Origin: a virus
Lineage: Duplodnaviria; Heunggongvirae; Uroviricota; Caudoviricetes
Length of the DNA: 15,456 nucleotides
Reading direction: 5' to 3' (one strand)
IMG/VR virus record: IMGVR_UViG_2698536485_000022
The translations under genes and the position numbers were made by a program. The notes beneath the pieces were generated by a model that was given only the letters and a program-made list of their open reading frames with translations, made no database searches and was not told the origin of the DNA. Numbering within the stretch: the stretch's first letter is position 1; the number at the start of each line of letters is the position of its first letter. Of this stretch, positions 1 to 14,548 are shown in pieces.

Positions 1-420
1 ATGACGGATTATCAGCCATACAGGAAAGGAACTGTGCTTGCCCCAACTGGGCCATGCAATCATCTTCATGTGATTTGTAATGATCCTGTTTATTACCCCG
101 TTAACGATTGTTATTGTGTTTTAGTTGTTAATATTTCTAGTATCAAGGATGGGGTACCCCACGATCCGTCTTGCGTCTTGAATTCCGGTGATCATCGCTT
201 TATCAAGCATCCAAGTTATGTTGTTTACGCTGAAGCTATAATTTGGCGAGTGGATAACATGGTTAGAAAGCAGCGATCGGGTGAGATTTCTGTTCATGAT
301 GATATGCCAGAAGCTACATTCAATAGAATTCTGGACGGTTTTGATATATCTGATGAAGTTACGCCAAAGAACCTTAAATTTAAAAATAAATATTGCGTAT
401 CATCTATTGATGATGAGTAA
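1..420 (+). CDS. hypothetical protein (139 aa); true start may lie upstream of the window
   Basis: ORF from ATG at position 1 to TAA at 418-420 (MTDYQPYRKGTVLAPTGPC...). No family recognised by eye. Same strand as the downstream CoiA-like gene. Confidence 0.4.
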   Translation: MTDYQPYRKGTVLAPTGPCNHLHVICNDPVYYPVNDCYCVLVVNISSIKDGVPHDPSCVLNSGDHRFIKHPSYVVYAEAIIWRVDNMVRKQRSGEISVHDDMPEATFNRILDGFDISDEVTPKNLKFKNKYCVSSIDDE

Positions 421-459
421 ACAACAGGAATTGTTTCGGTATAGCTTCTGGTGTTTTCT

Positions 460-633
460 ATGGAAGATCAAAAAGCAACCAAGCCACAGCTTAAGTTCGA
501 CACAATGAAAGCATTCGCAGGTATGGGTGCTGCTGTTGAAGTTCTGATGAAGGCTGCTCCTAATGCGTTCACTCACGTTACTGTCTCTGGTAAAGAGCAG
601 CAGGGTAAGCTTCGTCGTCGCAAAGCAGTATGA
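460..633 (+). CDS. small hypothetical protein (57 aa), doubtful
   Basis: ATG 460 is in frame with track ORF 451-633 (GTG 451). Gly/Ala-rich core and basic tail (GKLRRRKAV). No convincing Shine-Dalgarno; may be non-coding. Confidence 0.2.
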   Translation: MEDQKATKPQLKFDTMKAFAGMGAAVEVLMKAAPNAFTHVTVSGKEQQGKLRRRKAV

Positions 634-771
634 TTCATAGGTGGTGATTTTTTAAAAATGTCTTTAGACATAATGTCGTTCACTTAAGTATGGTGGTACT
701 GCGTTTCACCAGATAATGGTTTTTTGATATCTTAATTTCCCTCGCCAGGAGGGTAAATACAGGTAGCATGA

Positions 772-1806
772 ATGCCACTAAAAGCGTCACTTAACGGAAA
801 AGAAATTCATTCTTTTGAATTTAACTCTCAGGAATGGGAATATCTTAAACAGACATATAAAAGCCAGTCTTTGTTTATGTCGTGCTGTGGTCAGCCTGGT
901 ATACCTAAAACAAGCAAACTTAATAACTATTACTTTGCACATAAATCCAAAAGCGATTGCCTGTATGCGAAAGAAAGCGCAGAACATTTATATCTCAAAT
1001 TCTTAATCGCAAAATTAGCCAGTGATGCTGGCTGGTCAGTTACTACCGAAAAACAAGGGGTGACCCCAACAGGAGAACAATGGATTGCCGATGTGTTTTG
1101 TACCAGAAATAACGCGAAACTGGTTTTCGAAGTACAGTTATCACCGCAAAAAGACGATGAATTTAAAGAACGTCAAAAACGATATATCGCATCAGGAGTC
1201 CGTGCACTGTGGTTGCGAAAGTTACGTAAAGGAAGTAAAGAGCATGGTGGGAATATATACCATAGCTACGATTTACCTGTTTTTGGTGTGCGTCAGAATG
1301 AAAATGGGGACTTGTATCTACCACAGTTTGGGATTAGTGTCAGGGAGTTTATCGCGGGTGTTTTTGCCAGAAAGCTATTATGGTTCCCAAAGGTTGGGGA
1401 TGTGCTGACTGCAAAAATAGAATCGCGAGTTACAAAATGCTGGAGATGTAAGAAACGAACTGGAATTATCAGGGGTATTTCTGTTTACAGTAAGTCCGTA
1501 TTCGTCAAGTTTTTATCTTTTCGTGATTCTGATGTCAAAGAACTAATAGCCATTCACGTGGATAACAAAAAACTCTGGGCGGCTGGAATTGGTACTGTTA
1601 AGGACAGAGACAGTGATTGTTATTTATCTAACTGTTGCATACATTGTTATTCGCTTATAGGAGATTTCTTTTTATTAGAGGTTTTCGACTACCCGAATGA
1701 TAAACAAAAGATAATGATAGAATTTACTTTTACTTATGCTAGCAATATGAAAATCTTATCCAGCGAGTGGGTATTTGATGGTAAAAAAGCTGAAATGTTT
1801 TTCTGA
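772..1806 (+). CDS. CoiA-like PD-(D/E)xK nuclease-family protein with Cys-rich C-terminal half
   Basis: 344-aa ORF from ATG 772. Motif series YFAHK ... ESAEHLYLK ... IADVFC ... LVFEVQLS ... RYIASGVRALWL matches what I recall for CoiA-family nucleases (D ... E-x-Q catalytic pattern). C-terminal half has CWRCKK and CCIHC clusters. Visibly AT-rich compared with the phage backbone. Confidence 0.55.
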   Translation: MPLKASLNGKEIHSFEFNSQEWEYLKQTYKSQSLFMSCCGQPGIPKTSKLNNYYFAHKSKSDCLYAKESAEHLYLKFLIAKLASDAGWSVTTEKQGVTPTGEQWIADVFCTRNNAKLVFEVQLSPQKDDEFKERQKRYIASGVRALWLRKLRKGSKEHGGNIYHSYDLPVFGVRQNENGDLYLPQFGISVREFIAGVFARKLLWFPKVGDVLTAKIESRVTKCWRCKKRTGIIRGISVYSKSVFVKFLSFRDSDVKELIAIHVDNKKLWAAGIGTVKDRDSDCYLSNCCIHCYSLIGDFFLLEVFDYPNDKQKIMIEFTFTYASNMKILSSEWVFDGKKAEMFF

Positions 1807-1997: not shown

Positions 1998-2291
1998 TTA
2001 GTGATGTTCTTTGCTCTTCTGTTTGTCTGTTCTGACCCGTTCCCACTCGATACGTCCTTCTTCTCGTCTTTTATCTATGTATTCCGCAAGATCCTGAATA
2101 TTGATGCAACGTTTTGCTTTTTGTGATGTGCCAATGCGATATGTAGGAACAGGCAACTTACAAGCGTTTGCTTTTGCTTCTGCTGTGGCTGGACTCATAC
2201 CAAAGTACTTTTGGCTAACTGCTGAGAGTTCAATGTTTGAGGTATTGAATTCAGCCATCAGTAAAAACAAGGTGTTCATAAATTTCTCCAT
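1998..2291 (-). CDS. PrtN-family small DNA-binding protein (pyocin-activator / excisionase-like)
   Basis: Track ORF 1998-2354 (TTG start) trimmed to ATG 2291 (MEKFMNTLFLLMAEF...). Pattern MNT-FLLMA ... YF ... LPVPTYRIG-SQKA ... DLAEYIDKRR matches my recollection of the PrtN family. Lies 28 bp downstream of the membrane gene on the same strand. Confidence 0.6.
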   Translation of the reverse strand: MEKFMNTLFLLMAEFNTSNIELSAVSQKYFGMSPATAEAKANACKLPVPTYRIGTSQKAKRCINIQDLAEYIDKRREEGRIEWERVRTDKQKSKEHH

Positions 2292-2319: not shown

Positions 2320-3186
2320 TTAATTAATAGCGTCTTTGCTCTGAAGTACAGCAAATGCCATTAATACCTCTAAAGTATATCGTCTATAAAACTTAACGAA
2401 TCCAACATAAAAAACATAGACGAAGAAAAAGCTAAGTAGCGTCGAAATAGAAATATAAGACACCGCCCCGCCTTCTATAGCACGATAAATTAATGTTAGA
2501 AATGATATCCAAAATGTAATTACAAATACTAAACAAATATTTCTGCAAAAACCATATAATGCAACATAGTTTTGAATTTTTGTTTGATGTTGATTAGAAA
2601 ATTCATAGACGTAATGATAAGCCAATCTGAAAAGATCATCATGAAGACCTGTCCTGATGTTTAATAATTTATCGTCTATTCTGAATTTTTTTTCATAACC
2701 TTCTTTGATCATTAGCCATGTGGTATTAGCTAATTGAAATGGCAATGATTGTGAATAACATAGTTTTTGAGTGGCGTAATCCCATGGTATTATCGGGAAT
2801 AACATCACTTTGATTATGCAGTATTTTATTTTTCTCTTTGTGTCTTCGTTCTGTTTGTCACTTGATGGTGTTAAGACGTTTTTTTTGTCATCTGATAACT
2901 TATTAAATAGATATTCTGACGGATATTGCAATTCTTCGTTCATATATTTTTCAATAAAAAATGCGGATGTGATAGATATAAAGTGTCCAGCTATGTAAGA
3001 TATGATTACTATTGAACCATAGTTCAAAATGCCAAAGATTTGACTTTGACCTCTGAGCAATTCAGTTAAGTCAATAACAATATCTAGATCGAATGTCAAA
3101 CCACAGAAATACATTAACAGGATAAAAAATCCACCTGGTATTAAATATCCAAGAAAGTCATAGAATGAGAATGGATTTTGATTCAT
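2320..3186 (-). CDS. multi-pass inner-membrane protein, AT-rich cargo gene, function unknown
   Basis: Track ORF 2320-3210 (TTG) trimmed to ATG 3186, preceded by GGAGAG. 288 aa with at least four helix-length hydrophobic segments (FLGYLIPGGFFILLMYFCGLTF, IFGILNYGSIVIISYIAGHFISITSAFF, ICLVFVITFWISFLTLIY, ISISTLLSFFFVYVFYVGFV). Strongly AT-rich. Confidence 0.7.
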   Translation of the reverse strand: MNQNPFSFYDFLGYLIPGGFFILLMYFCGLTFDLDIVIDLTELLRGQSQIFGILNYGSIVIISYIAGHFISITSAFFIEKYMNEELQYPSEYLFNKLSDDKKNVLTPSSDKQNEDTKRKIKYCIIKVMLFPIIPWDYATQKLCYSQSLPFQLANTTWLMIKEGYEKKFRIDDKLLNIRTGLHDDLFRLAYHYVYEFSNQHQTKIQNYVALYGFCRNICLVFVITFWISFLTLIYRAIEGGAVSYISISTLLSFFFVYVFYVGFVKFYRRYTLEVLMAFAVLQSKDAIN

Positions 3187-3294: not shown

Positions 3295-3819
3295 TTACGA
3301 CTCAGTTAACTCTTTAAAGCGTTCCATAAACATCCCGTAGGCATGGCCCGGTGCCAGTGGAATCACGTTGAACATCTCTGTTGCCGGGATGCCTTCCAGT
3401 ACAGGCCAGAAAGAGCCATCATCAAGCCCGAGATCGCGGCGTTCGGTTGCCAGCATGATGAGATCGGCATATTTCACGGGCGTACTCATAACCGGGGGTA
3501 ACCCGTATTTCTCACGGATTACGGCGTCTATTTTTTCTTCCATCCGTTTATAGTCAGGAAGAAGGCGTTTCAGTGGTGCGGGAATGTCCTGGCAATACGC
3601 TTCTGTTGCATCATGCATTAACGCTTCAAAAGCAAATTCCTGCGGCACCAGCTGGCTGCAAAGCACCGCATGTTGGGCGACGCTGTAGAAGTGAGAAAGA
3701 TGACCGGCAAAGCGACAGATATTTGAAAGGGAAACCGCGATATCGTTAATAACGATGTCATCTTTATTTATCTTGTCATAATAAAAATGCTTCCCGGAAA
3801 AAGTTTTAATAAATGACAT
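3295..3819 (-). CDS. yfdR: HD-domain phosphohydrolase, YfbR/YfdR-like 5'-deoxynucleotidase family
   Basis: Track ORF 3295-3846 trimmed to ATG 3819 with GGAG 8 nt upstream; 174 aa. HD signature AGHLSHFYSVAQHAV ... ALMHDATEAYCQDIP. Size and position next to a 274-aa gene match my recollection of CPS-53 yfdR. Confidence 0.7.
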   Translation of the reverse strand: MSFIKTFSGKHFYYDKINKDDIVINDIAVSLSNICRFAGHLSHFYSVAQHAVLCSQLVPQEFAFEALMHDATEAYCQDIPAPLKRLLPDYKRMEEKIDAVIREKYGLPPVMSTPVKYADLIMLATERRDLGLDDGSFWPVLEGIPATEMFNVIPLAPGHAYGMFMERFKELTES

Positions 3820-3946
3820 TTTGTTCTCCACGTATATGCGCTGCACCGCGCTGAATTTGGGTAAAAGGAAGCCCTCACCATCCGGTGATTATTGAGTTAA
3901 TTACGTTTCCATAAATGCCCCCGCAGGGGCATTTGCAGTAATGAAA

Positions 3947-4771
3947 TCAGGCGGTGAAAGTACCAATAAAGGTTTCTACTTTGCTGTCTTTGAATTTCTC
4001 AACAAGCAGATCACGAAATTCGTTAGCCATATCTTCCTGCACCGCTTCCAGCTGAATAATGCGCAGAACCAGTACAGGACGATCGCCAGTGATAATGCTG
4101 AGGCGTAATTTAAACGGACGTTCTTTCAGACCTTCAAACGGAACGCATTTAAATTCAAATGCCACTGGCATAATGTCTTTGGTCTTCGCTTCGACAGATT
4201 CCATCAGGGAGCGTTTGCCGCTGAAGTCATTATCTTCAAAATCAGCGGTCTGGTTTGCTTCAATCGTGATTTTACGGATTGCCGCAGCCGCTTTTGTTGC
4301 CTGAATGGCGCCACCATTAGCATCAAAGCCCACAAGGTAGTCGGCCCAGTCTTCAATCCATTCTGCCAGTGATTTCTGGGAGTTACGCTCGCCGTTAACA
4401 GACAACAGGGCAGAGAACGGTGCTGTCTTTTTCAGTTTGAGAGTGGCGGTGTTATCTGCGTGACCTGGTTCATCAATAGTACCCAGGTTAAGCACACTGA
4501 CGGCACGCATATTATCAGCATCGATAAAGCAGCGGGTGCCTTCATCTGCAAGATCTTTAGAATAACGGGTAAAGTCATCGATGCTGGCAGTGGAAAGCGC
4601 ACCACGGAAACGGAAGCGATTTAAATTAAATTTTTCCAGATCATGAATGCGGAAATTCTCAGGCAATGCCACAGCATCGGCACCAATCTTACTGATAATT
4701 TCATTAACACCCTGAGCAGAAATAAGGGCATGGATTTGATTAATTGCGGTTGCGTCTAAGTTCTGAGACAT
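3947..4771 (-). CDS. yfdQ: YfdQ-like prophage protein (DUF2303-type)
   Basis: 274-aa ORF from ATG 4771 with GAGGA Shine-Dalgarno. Length and synteny (120-aa gene upstream, HD-domain gene downstream) match the yfdP-yfdQ-yfdR order of K-12 CPS-53 as I recall it. Not verified by alignment. Confidence 0.55.
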
Positions 4772-4836
4772 AATAAGTCCTCACTATATAAAGATATTCA
4801 GTGATGAGATAAATAATCAGTTAATTAAGAACGATA

Positions 4837-5199
4837 TTAATGACCTGCTGCGCGTAGTTTTCCGTCAGGTTCACCGGCAAGAGTCAGTAATTGTCCCTGG
4901 TCTTCCTGCAGAATAGTCAGGCGACCACCGCGATTGACATACATCGGCGTTTCGGTGGTGTCTTCTTCGGAAATTTTCCCGCGGTTAGTCGGGCGAACAT
5001 ATGAGAGTTTGTGTTTGATTTTCACACGGTTCTCATCAAATGGTTCGATTTCCAGGTTGAGTGAGACCTTACCTTTGGTTTTCGTGTTCATCACACCGGA
5101 AGCGACTTCACTGAGAACTGCGCCGATTTTGGTTTCAAATACGCCGCCGTCCAGCTCCCCGATAAATGCCTGCACATCAGTACTGCGTTCGCTAGCCAT
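4837..5199 (-). CDS. YfdP-like small prophage protein (120 aa)
   Basis: Track ORF 4837-5430 trimmed to ATG 5199, which has AGGAG 7 nt upstream (MASERSTDVQAFIGELDGG...). The 77-codon upstream extension overlaps structured RNA and looks non-coding. Confidence 0.55.
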   Translation of the reverse strand: MASERSTDVQAFIGELDGGVFETKIGAVLSEVASGVMNTKTKGKVSLNLEIEPFDENRVKIKHKLSYVRPTNRGKISEEDTTETPMYVNRGGRLTILQEDQGQLLTLAGEPDGKLRAAGH

Positions 5200-5247
5200 T
5201 TTGCTGCTCCTCATCATATCGACCCTGCAAGGTCGGTTGGTTTCTCC

Positions 5248-5336: not shown

Positions 5337-5400
5337 AAAAAGAGCGGTACCAGCCGGAAGCAAGGGTACAAACTGGTACCGCCAAAGCAGTGGCTGTTGT
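5334..5400 (-). ncRNA. candidate DicF-like sRNA ending in an intrinsic terminator (tL-like)
   Basis: Minus-strand RNA forms GCGGUACCAG-(19 nt loop)-CUGGUACCGC (5344-5353 / 5373-5382) followed by UCUUUUUAC. The 5' part CUUUGGCGGUACCAGUUUGUACCC resembles the DicF core UUUGGCGGUAUCAGUUUUACUCC as I recall it. Sits downstream of the pL-like promoter, as dicF does relative to dicA. Confidence 0.35.
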
Positions 5401-5799
5401 GGTGGGGTTGTCACTCAGGCGTATGGTCAACCTGACAATCCGGTGTCCTCAACGGGGAAAGAGTAACCCCGCCATACTTACCGCCGCGCCATTTCGCGGA
5501 TTACCACAACGCTGAGAGCACTTAGCCAGTTACGGCACCACACTTTGTCGCGGCTCCATAAATGCCCTCATCGTTGCCCCCTGGTCTCTTCCCTGGCGTC
5601 AAACCGGATCGCCGCGCTGGTTAGGCGTCTTATCAGCATCCTCATTGACTTGCACATTCCGGCTACCTGGTTTGTTTGCCCGAGCAAGGAGTGGATTATC
5701 CCCTTTAACGTCACCAGACCGCTAACGACGCATGTGCCATACGCCGTGTTACAACCAAATTTTGTTTAATCTTGCCTGTGTTGTGTTTCTTTTAGATAC

Positions 5800-5827
5800 A
5801 TTATGTATCCCGAGGGTACATTGTCAA
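5800..5827 (-). promoter_or_regulatory. candidate early-left promoter (pL-like) with overlapping palindromic operator
   Basis: On the minus strand: -35 TTGACA (5822-5827), 16-nt spacer, -10 CATAAT (5800-5805). Palindrome GATACA-TTA-TGTATC (5795-5809) overlaps the -10. GGTACA half-site at 5815-5820. Confidence 0.45.
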
Positions 5828-5831
5828 GTAT

Positions 5832-5854
5832 AAAAAAACCTGCCGAAGCAGGTT
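5832..5854 (-). terminator. rho-independent terminator ending the cI transcript
   Basis: Minus strand AACCTGC-TTCG-GCAGGTT followed by seven U, 12 nt after the cI stop codon (5866-5868). Confidence 0.65.
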
Positions 5855-5865
5855 ATAAATATTGA

Positions 5866-6540
5866 TTAGGCCTTTATTATGTATCTTCTTGGTTTTCCTG
5901 AGAAAATCACTGTACCAATTATAGAGCAATTACCGTTGATCTTAATGTAAGGTTCAGGCCAGTTTGGGTTTAATGCTTTGAGGTAACGCTGTGTTCCATC
6001 TTCTATCAACCGCTTGAAGGTGGTTTCGCCTGTATCGTGCATCAATGCAATAACGTCGTCACCGTGGCAGGCAGGGACTTCAGGATCAACAAAAATCATG
6101 TCTCCCGGGCGGTACTCATCAATCATTGAATCACCAATCACCCGCAAGATATAAGTCATTTCGCCACAGGGTACAGGGCAGGGGTAAGTTTCTGCTGTGC
6201 TCAAATCAACCTCAGAATAGCCAACTTCTTTCCATGCTCCGGCCTGTACCCATGATATGACAGGGACTAACGTTATTTGTTTGTTAGTGATTGAAACATC
6301 AGGTTTTTTTGTGATGTTCGTGGTCTGGTGTTCTTGATCAAGCCATCCGACAGGCAGGTCGAAACATTTTTCGATGTGCCGCGCCATGCTGTCACCGATA
6401 TTTTTAGTAGCACCATCTCCCATAAACCTGCTGGTCTGGGTTGGCTCGCGATCAATCATGGTGGCAAAGGAAGAATTCCCGCCAACACCATCTCTCAGTT
6501 TTCTGGCGTTAGACCGCCGGATGTCATGGACTGTTTTCAT
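5866..6540 (-). CDS. cI: CI-type prophage repressor (N-terminal HTH, C-terminal S24 LexA-like autopeptidase)
   Basis: 224 aa from ATG 6540. C-terminal domain has the Ala-Gly cleavage site (VQAGAW), catalytic Ser in VIGDSM and Lys in TFKRL. Divergent from the cro-like gene. Confidence 0.85.
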   Translation of the reverse strand: MKTVHDIRRSNARKLRDGVGGNSSFATMIDREPTQTSRFMGDGATKNIGDSMARHIEKCFDLPVGWLDQEHQTTNITKKPDVSITNKQITLVPVISWVQAGAWKEVGYSEVDLSTAETYPCPVPCGEMTYILRVIGDSMIDEYRPGDMIFVDPEVPACHGDDVIALMHDTGETTFKRLIEDGTQRYLKALNPNWPEPYIKINGNCSIIGTVIFSGKPRRYIIKA

Positions 6541-6630
6541 AAAGAAATTAAAACCTTTGTACCGATAAGGTACAAGTATCTTGAAGGTTCATCTCAATCA
6601 TGTAATATGTATACCGGAAGTACATATTGT
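6541..6630. promoter_or_regulatory. divergent immunity-region promoter/operator segment (pRM / pR equivalents)
   Basis: Perfect palindrome TTGTACC-GATAA-GGTACAA at 6557-6575 and related TACA-TAT-TGTA at 6621-6631. Candidate pR hexamers TTGAAG (6581-6586) and TAATAT (6603-6608). Confidence 0.55.
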
Positions 6631-6862: not shown

Positions 6863-7426
6863 ATGAGGCTAACCGTGGGTAAGCATCACTGGAAAGTAGA
6901 AAAACAGCCTGAGTGGTACGTGAAAGCTGTCAGAAAAACTATCGCGGCGTTGCCGGGGGGTTACGCTGAAGCTGCTGAGTGGCTGGATGTAACAGAGAAC
7001 GCTTTATTCAACCGCCTTCGTGCAGATGGCGATCAGATTTTCCCGCTGGGATGGGCAATGGTTTTACAGCGCGCGGCTGGCACTCACTACATTGCGGATG
7101 CTGTCGCACAGTCTGCTGGTGGGGTGTTTGTATCGCTTCCTGAAATTGAGGAAGTAGAGAACGCCGATATAAACCAGCGCCTGCTGGAAGTCATCGAACA
7201 GATCGGGAATTACTCAAAGCAGATTCGTTCGGCAATCGAAGATGGGGTCGTGGAGCCACACGAGCAGACAGCAATTAATGATGAGTTGTATCTGTCAATT
7301 TCGAAGCTCCAGGAGCATGCAGCACTGGTCTACAAAATCTTCTGCGCTCCAGAAAAGAGTGACGCCCGCGAGTGTGCAGCTCCGGGCGTCGTGGCGTTTT
7401 GTGTCTGTGGAGAAACTAACGCATGA
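6863..7426 (+). CDS. early regulatory protein, CII-like / YdaT-like family
   Basis: 187-aa ORF immediately after cro. Stop overlaps the next start (ATGA). Family call is by position and general resemblance only. Confidence 0.45.
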
Positions 7427-7814
7427 ACAGTTTAACAACACACTACCGTCGCTCGCAACTGATTGCGCTTCCTGTACCGGGTGGAAAAGCGAAGGTGGAG
7501 TATTGCTATGCAGTGAATGTACCAGGTGACAGGGAAATTGTAACCCACAGCTTTGCAGAGTGGGCTGTGGGTGATTTCAACCGGCAGAAGGAGACAGTCC
7601 TTTGCGACAAGTTAACCGCTGGTTCAAAGATCACTACGGAGTGCCCGTCAGAGTCATTCGTTGGGAGCCGGAAACACAACGGGTTATCTACCTCCGTGAA
7701 GGCTATGAACATGAATGCTTCAGTCCGCTCGAACAGTTTCGTCGTAAATTCAGGGAAATAGAGGTCGGTCATGAGCCTGTTAATGACATCCCAGCCCATT
7801 GTGATAAATCGTGA
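7423..7814 (+). CDS. uncharacterised early gene with a frame switch (frame 1 open 7423-7761; frame 0 open 7575-7814)
   Basis: ATG 7423 has GGAGAAA upstream and overlaps the previous stop. Frame 0 has AAGGAGA followed by TTG at 7602 and encodes [54 protein letters not shown]. The frame-1 tail after about 7600 is low-complexity (Ser/Asn-rich). Confidence 0.35.
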
Positions 7815-8763
7815 TCTTGCATGCCGTATTGGTCTGAATGAGGCAATTGTGTTGCAGCAGCTTCATTACTGGCTGAATGAAACGAATTCAGGCACTGAGC
7901 ATGGCGGAATTCGCTGGGTTTATAACACGACAGAACAGTGGCTGGAGCAGTTTCCGTTCTGGTCAGAGTCCACTCTGAAACGCACATTTGCAAGCCTGAA
8001 ATCACTTGGGGTTTTGCGTCGCGAGCAACTCAATAAATCGAAGCGTGACATGACCAACTTCTACACGATCAACTATGAAAGTGAGCTTTTAGAAGAGGTC
8101 AAAGTGAACGAATCCATCAGGTCAAAATGCACTTCTCCATCGGGTCAAAGTGACCTGATGGATGGGCGCAAAATGACACGATCCATTGGTTCAAAACGAC
8201 ACGCTGTCATCGGGTCAAAATGGCCCAATGATCTTACAGAGAATACAACAGAGATTACTACAGAGAATAAAACCTCTTCTCGTCCGGACGCTTCGCAACC
8301 GGACACGCAAACGGCTGAACAGGAGTTTTTAACTCGCCATCCTGATGCGGTTGTATTCAGCCCTAAAAAGCGCCAGTGGGGAACGCAGGATGATTTGACC
8401 TGCGCACAGTGGCTCTGGAAAAAAATCATCGCCCTGTACGAGCAGGCCGCCGAATGTGACGGCGAGGTGGTTCGTCCCAAAGAACCGAACTGGACAGCAT
8501 GGGCAAACGAAATTCGCCTGATGTGTGTGCAGGATGGTCGTACTCACAAACAAATCTGCGAGATGTACAGCCGCGTCAGCCGCGATCCGTTCTGGTGCCG
8601 TAACGTGCTCAGCCCGTCGAAGTTGCGGGAAAAATGGGATGAGCTTTCCCTGCGCTTATCGCCGTCCGTCAGCACGCACACAGAAAAACGTGAAGACCCG
8701 TACTTCAAAGCCAGTTACGACAACGTGGACTACAGCCAGATCCCGGCAGGATTCAGGGGGTGA
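7771..8763 (+). CDS. replication initiation protein, O-like (replisome-organizer / DnaD-like N-terminal domain)
   Basis: 330 aa from ATG 7771 with GAGG Shine-Dalgarno. N-terminus [36 protein letters not shown] ... TLKRTFASLKSLGVLRRE is typical of phage replisome organizers. Position after cro/cII. Confidence 0.75.
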   Translation: MSLLMTSQPIVINRDLACRIGLNEAIVLQQLHYWLNETNSGTEHGGIRWVYNTTEQWLEQFPFWSESTLKRTFASLKSLGVLRREQLNKSKRDMTNFYTINYESELLEEVKVNESIRSKCTSPSGQSDLMDGRKMTRSIGSKRHAVIGSKWPNDLTENTTEITTENKTSSRPDASQPDTQTAEQEFLTRHPDAVVFSPKKRQWGTQDDLTCAQWLWKKIIALYEQAAECDGEVVRPKEPNWTAWANEIRLMCVQDGRTHKQICEMYSRVSRDPFWCRNVLSPSKLREKWDELSLRLSPSVSTHTEKREDPYFKASYDNVDYSQIPAGFRG

Positions 8764-13911: not shown

Positions 13912-13987
13912 GGCCCTTTAGCTCAGTGGTGAGAGCGAGCGACTCATAATCGCCAGGTCGCTGGTTCAAATCCAGCAAGGGCCACCA
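13912..13987 (+). tRNA. tRNA-Ile (anticodon CAU, ileX/ileZ-like); tRNA-Met not formally excluded
   Basis: 76 nt: GGCCCTT acceptor stem, TAGCTCAGTGG D-arm, anticodon loop CTCATAA (CAT at 13945-13947), T-loop TTCAAAT, 3' ACCA. Close to the E. coli ileX sequence as I recall it. Confidence 0.85.
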
Positions 13988-13988
13988 A

Positions 13989-14054
13989 CCGCCACTAGCT
14001 CATCAGGAAAGAACGTCACCCTGTGCGAGATTCGGAGTCCCCGGTGGCGGTCCA
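13989..14054 (+). other. tRNA-like remnant (7-bp acceptor-type stem plus TCCA tail, no intact anticodon or T arm)
   Basis: CCGCCAC (13989-13995) pairs perfectly with GTGGCGG (14044-14050), followed by TCCA. Interior begins TAGCTCA like a D-arm but is too short (66 nt) to fold as a cloverleaf. Confidence 0.3.
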
Positions 14055-14067
14055 TTATCGGTATTCT

Positions 14068-14144
14068 GCGTTGTTAGCTCAGCCGGACAGAGCAATTGCC
14101 TTCTAAGCAATCGGTCACTGGTTCGAATCCAGTACAACGCACCA
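14068..14144 (+). tRNA. tRNA-Arg (anticodon UCU)
   Basis: 77 nt: acceptor GCGTTGT/ACAACGC, anticodon stem ATTGC/GCAAT with loop CTTCTAA (TCT at 14102-14104), T-arm ACTGG-TTCGAAT-CCAGT, 3' ACCA. Confidence 0.85.
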
Positions 14145-14548
14145 CACCACACTTATCTGCCCTGACTCTCTTTTGCGGGCTTTTTATTACAGGAAAGACA
14201 CCGGACAGTGAAATGTTAAATGCCTCACAATTCAGGCAGTTGACTGTTGCCTGACATGCTGAGCGTTTGTTAAAAAAATCCTGCATGATGAATCCCCCTG
14301 AGCGGCGGGGCATAATGACAGATGTTTGGTTGCGTATTGTATAGGCAAGTTGCGGATTCTGTCTGGTCATTGCAGAATTCACCGGGAGGCACCCGGCATC
14401 ATGCTGTATACAGAGATTAGGCATATATCCAGGCTTCTCATCGCAGGAGCCTTTTTACATGCAAAAAAAAGCCCGAGTGGGTTCGGGCAACAGCATGAGA
14501 TACTTGCATTGTCATTTTTATCGTGTGGATTTTAACCAGGGTTTATAA

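Follow-up and report, generated by a model that had tools for sequence, protein, structure and literature searches.

A yfdP-yfdQ-yfdR block without yfdS or yfdT in a lambdoid prophage, near-identical to its counterpart in Escherichia coli K-12

The viral record IMGVR_UViG_2698536485_000022, a stretch of 15,456 nucleotides (nt) that we analysed at its full length and refer to as the window, holds at positions 3295-4771 two minus-strand open reading frames (ORFs), at the coordinates that an earlier reading of the sequence had given them. That reading, here called the original prediction, took the two genes for a YfdQ/YfdR-like pair in an early-left operon, one of them encoding an HD-domain nucleotidase, and suggested that the module may manipulate host replication or nucleotide pools during the early phase. 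The locus raises the question of whether these are indeed the genes known from Escherichia coli K-12 as yfdQ and yfdR and, if so, whether they can be expected to act here as their K-12 counterparts are reported to act. Our answer to the first part is that the identification is correct, and that the module is an ordinary one, very common in prophages and already annotated and published. The second part calls for a more guarded answer, which turns on the genes that accompany the pair. The genes concerned are as follows.

3295..3819, minus strand: yfdR, a 174-amino-acid (aa) HD-domain phosphohydrolase; PHROG 318, E 7e-108.
3947..4771, minus strand: yfdQ, a 274-aa DUF2303 protein; PHROG 210, E 5e-119.
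4837..5199, minus strand: yfdP, a 120-aa protein, 119/120 identical to K-12 YfdP.
3913..3934, minus strand: a GC-rich 9-base-pair hairpin, AAAUGCCCCUGCGGGGGCAUUU, found by folding, directly after the yfdQ stop in the 127-nt yfdQ-yfdR spacer.

Pairwise alignment to K-12 bears out both names, and at anything but low identity. YfdQ aligns without gaps to K-12 YfdQ (b2360) at 273/274 identical residues, YfdR is identical to K-12 YfdR (b2361) at 170 of 173 positions up to a mosaic junction, and the neighbouring genes are syntenic; we conclude that the two are orthologues of the K-12 proteins. YfdQ also matches Pfam DUF2303 (PF10065) over profile positions 2-269 of 269, scoring 310 bits where the cut-off is 26.6 (E 1.6e-92). 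Seven complete E. coli chromosomes match the 1477-nt yfdQ-yfdR stretch at 100%, and RefSeq labels the genes there 'YfdQ family protein' and 'yfdR: 5'-deoxynucleotidase'. Because the mosaic breakpoint of yfdR relative to K-12 lies at ~3300, the last ~6 residues of YfdR are unlike those of K-12. At the other end of the gene, K-12 and RefSeq begin the protein at the ATG at 3819, with GGAG eight bases ahead, which gives the 174-aa product; a 183-aa version from a GTG start (the program-listed ORF 3295-3846) was rejected, given the Shine-Dalgarno sequence that the K-12/RefSeq ATG carries. A 197-aa version of yfdP from a TTG start was likewise rejected as an unsupported upstream extension, the K-12/RefSeq ATG again having a Shine-Dalgarno sequence. 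The hairpin in the spacer has no U-tract and is also present in K-12; it may be an element of RNA stability, processing, attenuation or partial termination.

The similarity to K-12 does not stop at the pair. Nucleotide homology to the K-12 prophage CPS-53 spans 3300-5218 (98.5% over 1919 nt), with the mosaic junctions of the block lying 19 nt before yfdP (5218) and within the last yfdR codons, and on this alignment the conserved block is yfdP-yfdQ-yfdR. Over the 563 codons of the three genes, 19 nucleotide differences from K-12 are synonymous and only 2 codons encode another amino acid, while yfdR alone shows 16 synonymous and no nonsynonymous differences; because synonymous differences far exceed nonsynonymous ones, we take the block to be under purifying selection. 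It is also widespread: of 5426 complete E. coli genomes, 3012 carry the yfdQ-yfdR pair, and 129 phage records contain all three genes as a block, among them functional phages such as SfV, SfIV, mEp460 and many Stx2a and Stx2c phages, at 97-98% nucleotide identity. Given that the genes are near-identical to K-12 genes with a dedicated paper, and that over half of the complete E. coli genomes carry them, their identification matters little in itself.

The original prediction also held the metal-binding residues of the HD protein (H ... HD ... D) to be intact, and alignment reveals no loss of them: among 17 relatives of 66-85% identity, H50, H69, D70, D78 and D119 of YfdR are invariant and E73 is nearly so. 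The closest solved relative is Atu1052 (PDB 2gz4), an uncharacterised HD-domain protein of Agrobacterium, which aligns over nearly the full length of YfdR (E 4e-13), agrees with it at every motif residue and was the top match in a fold search; at ~24% identity, not phage-borne and of unknown function itself, it differs from YfdR in other respects. The comparison on which a nucleotidase assignment would depend is that with YfbR, a chromosomal housekeeping 5'-deoxynucleotidase and deoxycytidine monophosphate (dCMP) phosphohydrolase. Both are members of the HD superfamily, and H68-D69, E72 and D77 of YfbR align to H69-D70, E73 and D78 of YfdR; hhalign joins the two proteins over residues 61-96 only (the HD..E..D core, ~36 columns), with a probability of 28%. 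YfdR scores 24.2 bits against the Pfam YfbR-like family (PF12917), below its cut-off of 25.9, and 19.9 bits against the NCBIfam 5'-deoxynucleotidase equivalog NF003009, whose cut-off is 122. YfbR did not appear in the fold search that recovered 2gz4, for which the query was a poor, low-confidence AF2 model (pLDDT 55). PHROG and RefSeq label the YfdR family as a deoxynucleoside monophosphate (dNMP) phosphatase, and the dedicated study reports nucleotide affinities much below those of YfbR and a function that 'remains elusive' (Noguchi & Katayama 2016, PMC4776307). Membership of the '5'-deoxynucleotidase family', as originally stated, is thus too strong a claim: the HD core aligns, but the scores fall below the Pfam and NCBIfam cut-offs, and annotation alone is no ground for treating YfdR as a YfbR-type nucleotidase.

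Neither is the pair of yfdQ and yfdR the unit that it was taken to be. We surveyed the neighbourhoods of 80 yfdQ loci from ~75 species. In 79, the gene immediately upstream of yfdQ is YfdP-like, and the one remaining locus is truncated by a contig end. Downstream, 59/80 loci have a YfdR-like gene, as counted with a profile hidden Markov model (HMM) that rests on close relatives and could overlook HD proteins that have diverged, and just 8 have yfdS or yfdT. The constant pair is therefore YfdP-YfdQ, with YfdR a frequent enterobacterial addition, and the natural unit is yfdP-yfdQ(-yfdR) rather than yfdQRST. Across the ~75 species the ORFs stay full-length, at 41-75% identity, and the relatives of 41-45% identity (Marinobacter, Hahella, Kistimonas, Photobacterium) have the P-Q pair without YfdR. 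In Hahella and Kistimonas a gene for a single-stranded DNA-binding protein (SSB) follows yfdQ; Xanthomonas phage CP2 has the P-Q pair at the head of an operon, with Erf, exonuclease, endonuclease and SSB genes after it.

A structure has been deposited for this family: PDB 9o7m, 'YfdQ Protein', matches residues 16-273 of YfdQ (E 1.9e-44) and contains 36 chains. The protein, from a CP2-like phage of Xanthomonas, resembles ours in family, in length (274 aa) and in having a YfdP-like gene directly upstream; unlike the present prophage, its phage has no HD gene adjoining the pair, which is followed by Erf, exonuclease and SSB genes, and the match itself was judged by E-value. It may be that 9o7m already explains the function of the YfdQ family. 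Our own fold search with YfdQ returned no informative neighbour. We also considered a role in defence, for which PADLOC gave no match to YfdP, YfdQ or YfdR, in a library that holds defence and not anti-defence proteins, and we set aside the idea of a hidden recombinase or RecBCD inhibitor, which the Erf, exonuclease and SSB neighbours had prompted. What counts against a recombinase is that the yfd cluster coexists with complete Rec modules (PMC12315714); carriers without a Rec module are classed in a group lacking any apparent anti-RecBCD protein (PMC12315714). YfdQ is a very widespread phage protein.

Whether the block belongs to an early-left operon can be judged from the region upstream of yfdP, where the following features were found.

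5866..6540, minus strand: cI-like repressor gene (YmfK/LexA family, S24 peptidase), marking the immunity region upstream of the operon; Peptidase_S24 E 1.5e-26; ymfK in RefSeq; in the position of SfV cI.
5837..5854, minus strand: intrinsic-terminator-like hairpin with U-tract, directly after the repressor gene.
5800..5827, minus strand: candidate leftward early promoter, TTGACA-16-CATAAT, from a promoter scan (11/12 matches).
5337..5510, minus strand: DicF-related leader element, from alignment to the K-12 Qin dicF region; unannotated in RefSeq.

An operator-like palindrome, ATGTATCCCGAGGGTACAT, at 5803-5821 overlaps the candidate promoter, and its pattern, ATGTAT-N7-GTACAT, recurs between the repressor and cro-like genes at 6607-6625 (exactly) and at 6574-6592 (with 2 mismatches). 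None of 200 shuffles reached as many matches to the palindrome. The three copies are probably where the YmfK-type repressor binds. Because the genes lie behind a repressor-adjacent putative promoter that carries the same palindrome as the cI-cro interval, and share their strand with all genes down to xis, the term 'early-left operon' fits; at the level of sequence patterns, the position originally proposed is supported by repressor, terminator, promoter and shared palindrome alike.

Between the candidate promoter and yfdP lies a leader of ~600-666 nt that is poor in ORFs and strongly structured (z = -3.9), pieces of which occur in 4796 of the 5426 E. coli genomes and in some plasmids of ~90-100 kb. 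Within it, a flank of ~107 nt (5510-5404) matches almost throughout the K-12 Qin sequence just upstream of dicF, and a DicF-like hairpin with U-tract follows at 5386-5337, ~135 nt upstream of yfdP (UUUGGCGGUACCAGUUU... as against UUUGGCGGUAUCAGUUU... in DicF). The element is without the first 19 nt of DicF and differs from it in the loop and the 3' arm; the context of the DicF-related sequence was compared in strain H3 and K-12. Rfam gave nothing on the leader at the gathering threshold, at E <= 1 or at E <= 10, whereas its DicF model gives 76.7 bits on K-12 DicF itself. A tRNA in the leader, suggested by the label 'tRNA-Arg' on one BLAST match, was rejected: ARAGORN finds none, and the labelled tRNA merely adjoins the match. 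Because the DicF-like hairpin stands between the candidate promoter and yfdP, expression of yfdPQR from that promoter would require read-through.

What such expression might achieve has to be sought in the work on K-12, which the original prediction described accurately. K-12 YfdR binds DnaA domain I in a Phe46-dependent manner, as seen with purified protein, and moderately competes with DiaA and DnaB (PMC4776307). Multicopy yfdQRST inhibits replication initiation (PMC4776307), and a review (PMC5448010) supports the DnaA story. The minimal inhibitory set consists of yfdQ and yfdR together with yfdS or yfdT, and the suppression of hda-185 in K-12 needed both yfdQ and yfdR (PMC4776307).

We lean towards a joint reading of these observations, in which the block is a repressor-controlled early yfdPQR operon, YfdR dampens initiation at host oriC, and YfdP-YfdQ form a separate unit. 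Leftward transcription of the operon would start immediately downstream of the cI-like gene, at a promoter under repressor control, and the transcript would cross a structured leader of ~600 nt ending in the DicF-like terminator hairpin; given that promoter and that leader, yfdPQR would be off in the lysogen and would come on early after induction, and then only if the hairpin is read through. If YfdR behaves as its 98%-identical K-12 protein does, it would be a metal-dependent HD phosphohydrolase with weak dNMP phosphatase activity, and would bind DnaA domain I via Phe46, in competition with DiaA and DnaB. In the early lytic phase it would lower initiation at host oriC and perhaps trim dNMPs, as part of an operon for the takeover of the host cell cycle. 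YfdP and YfdQ would work apart from it as a closely coupled unit, probably oligomeric. We regard as improbable a bolder version, in which the leftward operon is a compact cell-cycle takeover unit independent of yfdS and yfdT, combining a DicF-type small RNA (sRNA), YfdR on DnaA and an ancient YfdP-YfdQ core; the divergent DicF-type sRNA would in that case act on cell division or on other targets, and YfdP-YfdQ would have a new activity. The core would be ancient in view of its place at the front of early DNA-metabolism operons, in Xanthomonas phages as in enterobacterial lambdoids, and a new activity would suit a protein that has no fold neighbour and whose homologue was deposited with 36 chains.

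Several results weigh against a dampening of host initiation by YfdR in this prophage, of which the most direct is the absence of its partners. Using tblastn, we found no yfdS, yfdT or torI in the window, and none of them in the 67 kb that span the whole ~47-kb prophage in NZ_CP027544.1, the closest complete genome (99.88% identical to the window, with 15 mismatches and 3 gaps). Of the inhibitory gene set, then, yfdQ and yfdR are present and intact and the required yfdS or yfdT is absent from the prophage, so that the published module is incomplete here and its effect should be weak, if it occurs at all, unless some other factor takes their place. The K-12 data themselves counsel caution: in vitro, YfdR on its own failed to block initiation when tested as purified protein, deletion of yfdQRST produced no replication or hydroxyurea phenotype (PMC4776307), and every published effect was obtained with genes in multicopy or overexpressed. 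For the enzymatic side, a yfdR knockout left the yield of cytidine monophosphate (CMP) unchanged in an engineered strain. The candidate promoter, the operators and the read-through are read from patterns in the sequence, and the P-Q unit is independent of YfdR, because YfdR is missing from 21/80 YfdQ loci. Taken as a whole, the interpretation in the original prediction is partly supported.

A query with yfdQ-yfdR matches two chromosomal places in NZ_CP027544.1. The second copy could possibly be a CPS-53-type locus with yfdS/yfdT, complementing the prophage in trans. Nor is the lack of yfdS and yfdT peculiar to this prophage: downstream of yfdR in 74 assessable E. coli-type viral contigs, yfdS and/or yfdT lie in 50, the AT-rich membrane-protein gene that is also present here in 7 and none of the tested genes in 17. 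About one third of natural E. coli-type copies are therefore without yfdS and yfdT, and the overexpression phenotype may not mirror the native role. The locus is a natural arrangement of this kind, and offers no special handle on the role of P-Q beyond that. Downstream of yfdR the window carries two further genes.

2320..3186, minus strand: membrane-protein gene, 288 aa, multi-pass; annotated in RefSeq; PHROG 12528; at the site of yfdS-yfdT in K-12 and SfV.
1998..2279, minus strand: excisionase-like PrtN-family gene, last of the leftward string; Pfam PyocinActivator E 8e-23; PHROG 1300, excisionase.

In a profile of GC content the membrane-protein gene stands out with ~31% against ~45-48%. Its product has weak similarity to SieB and Csx27 and may be superinfection-exclusion or abortive-infection cargo.

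Three other accounts of the block need to be set against the one we prefer. YfdR may be mainly an enzyme, a phage HD phosphohydrolase by which nucleotide pools are altered or a specific (modified or signalling) nucleotide is broken down, with such aims as favouring phage DNA synthesis or blunting host defence, DnaA binding being a side-effect of overexpression. That the HD..E..D motif, the first His and the last Asp are invariant in the family argues that catalysis is under selection; the purely synonymous divergence of yfdR from K-12, the dNMP-phosphatase labels and the nucleotide activity reported for the K-12 protein (PMC4776307) are all consistent with this. We nevertheless think the account rather unlikely, given affinities much below those of YfbR (PMC4776307) and scores under the YfbR-family HMM cut-offs, no known physiological substrate, a blank in PADLOC (if in a library of defence proteins) and an interaction with DnaA that is specific, depends on Phe46 and was observed with purified protein (PMC4776307). 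A further possibility is that yfdPQR is neutral cargo, inherited by mosaic recombination and without current function here. The mosaic junction at the 3' end of yfdR, the uneventful deletion of yfdQRST in K-12 (PMC4776307) and the possibility that the prophage is defective (see below for terL and gpJ) would all be expected of such cargo; a strong synonymous excess, full-length ORFs at 41-75% identity in ~75 species, the presence of the block in plaque-forming SfV, SfIV, mEp460 and Stx2 phages, and the sensitivity phenotypes reported for yfdQ deletion, towards methyl methanesulfonate (MMS) and hydrogen peroxide (H2O2) (PMC4776307), would not. Neutral cargo is, in our estimation, very improbable.

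In the remaining alternative the YfdQ/YfdR pair would have no joint mechanism. YfdP-YfdQ would be the functional unit, a large homo-oligomer serving early DNA metabolism or genome protection, and YfdR an unrelated hitch-hiker in lambdoid phages of enterobacteria. Here the neighbourhood survey speaks in favour, with YfdP beside YfdQ in all loci but one and YfdR in 59/80 and in none of the relatives of 41-45% identity, and the 36 YfdQ chains of 9o7m, the SSB genes after yfdQ in Hahella and Kistimonas and the CP2 operon with its Erf, exonuclease, endonuclease and SSB genes are in keeping with it. Set against these are the suppression of hda-185, which needed yfdQ as well as yfdR and implies some cooperation between them (PMC4776307), the coexistence of the cluster with complete Rec modules, which makes a hidden recombination module unlikely (PMC12315714), the lack of a fold neighbour that would back DNA binding, and the chance that our YfdR HMM overlooks divergent HD proteins. 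On balance this account seems to us possible but doubtful, and we retain, as the reading to which we incline, an early yfdPQR operon in which YfdR dampens host initiation beside a separate YfdP-YfdQ unit.

The locus can also be compared with known prophages and phages. In K-12, yfdP-Q-R-S-T (b2359-b2363) belong to CPS-53 (KplE1), with protein identities of 99% for YfdP, 99.6% for YfdQ and 98% for YfdR, and gene order, spacing and the hairpin between the genes are those of the present locus. CPS-53 then continues with yfdS, yfdT, ypdJ and torI, where we find the membrane-protein gene and the PrtN-type excisionase instead, and the leaders differ, given that homology begins only 19 nt before yfdP. 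The prophages also differ in size and site, ours being ~47 kb long and located in dusA, and CPS-53 a 10-kb remnant at argW. In that comparison the prophage is indeed 'less degraded', as originally described, but the closest genome has RefSeq frameshifts in ymfL (L001 14580-15130) and in the large terminase and tail-tip J genes (terL and gpJ; L165 7075-9002 and 22327-25721). The ymfL-like ORF of the window (6863-7426, with a Phage_CP76 domain) is intact, and because the window differs from the closest genome, some of the flagged pseudogenes may reflect faults in assembly or differences between strains.

Away from the block, 176 nt at 8267-8442, within a 330-aa right-operon ORF (7771-8763), are 96.6% identical to K-12 sequence at the 5' end of yfdO in CPS-53 and immediately ahead of it; this is another mosaic fragment common with CPS-53. 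The prophage end at window positions 1-1806 comprises a 105-nt 5' fragment of dusA, followed by a gene for a Panacea-domain protein and small hypothetical genes. A plus-strand gene with a CoiA-like nuclease domain (772-1806) completes this unusual end. These genes take the place beside xis that one would expect an integrase to hold; the actual integrase lies ~45 kb off at the other prophage end, adjoining an intact dusA (L001 6781-9512; L165 30749-32972). Downstream of the Q antiterminator (13912-14523) there are two tRNAs, called Met-CAT and Arg-TCT by ARAGORN and Ile and Arg by RefSeq, together with the sRNA STnc100 at 14254-14462 on the plus strand and the anti-GcvB sRNA AgvB at 14464-14523 on the minus strand. 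This layout of Q, tRNAs and sRNAs is as found upstream of stx in Stx phages, and no stx genes precede the SASA-family esterase gene here.

Among functional temperate phages, SfV is one of the closest parallels to the block. Its orf28-orf32 region includes the three genes at 97-98% nucleotide identity and lies between cI and xis/int; SfV differs in having the yfdS-/yfdT-type genes orf29 and orf28, in carrying int by xis, and in the presence of orf33 between cI and orf32. The yfdR/yfdQ/yfdP cluster has been described as common in lambdoid early-left operons, with the function of yfdQ and yfdP not known (PMC12315714). By description, the locus can be likened to LLS gp37-39 and ST64B gp35-37, of the 'no Rec module' group, which have the same trio in the early-left operon; from the ORF list and annotation, the left operon of the present prophage is likewise without exo/bet/gam-type genes. 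We conclude that the locus is an accessory block of an SfV/e14-like lambdoid prophage in dusA, essentially allelic to the genes of CPS-53.

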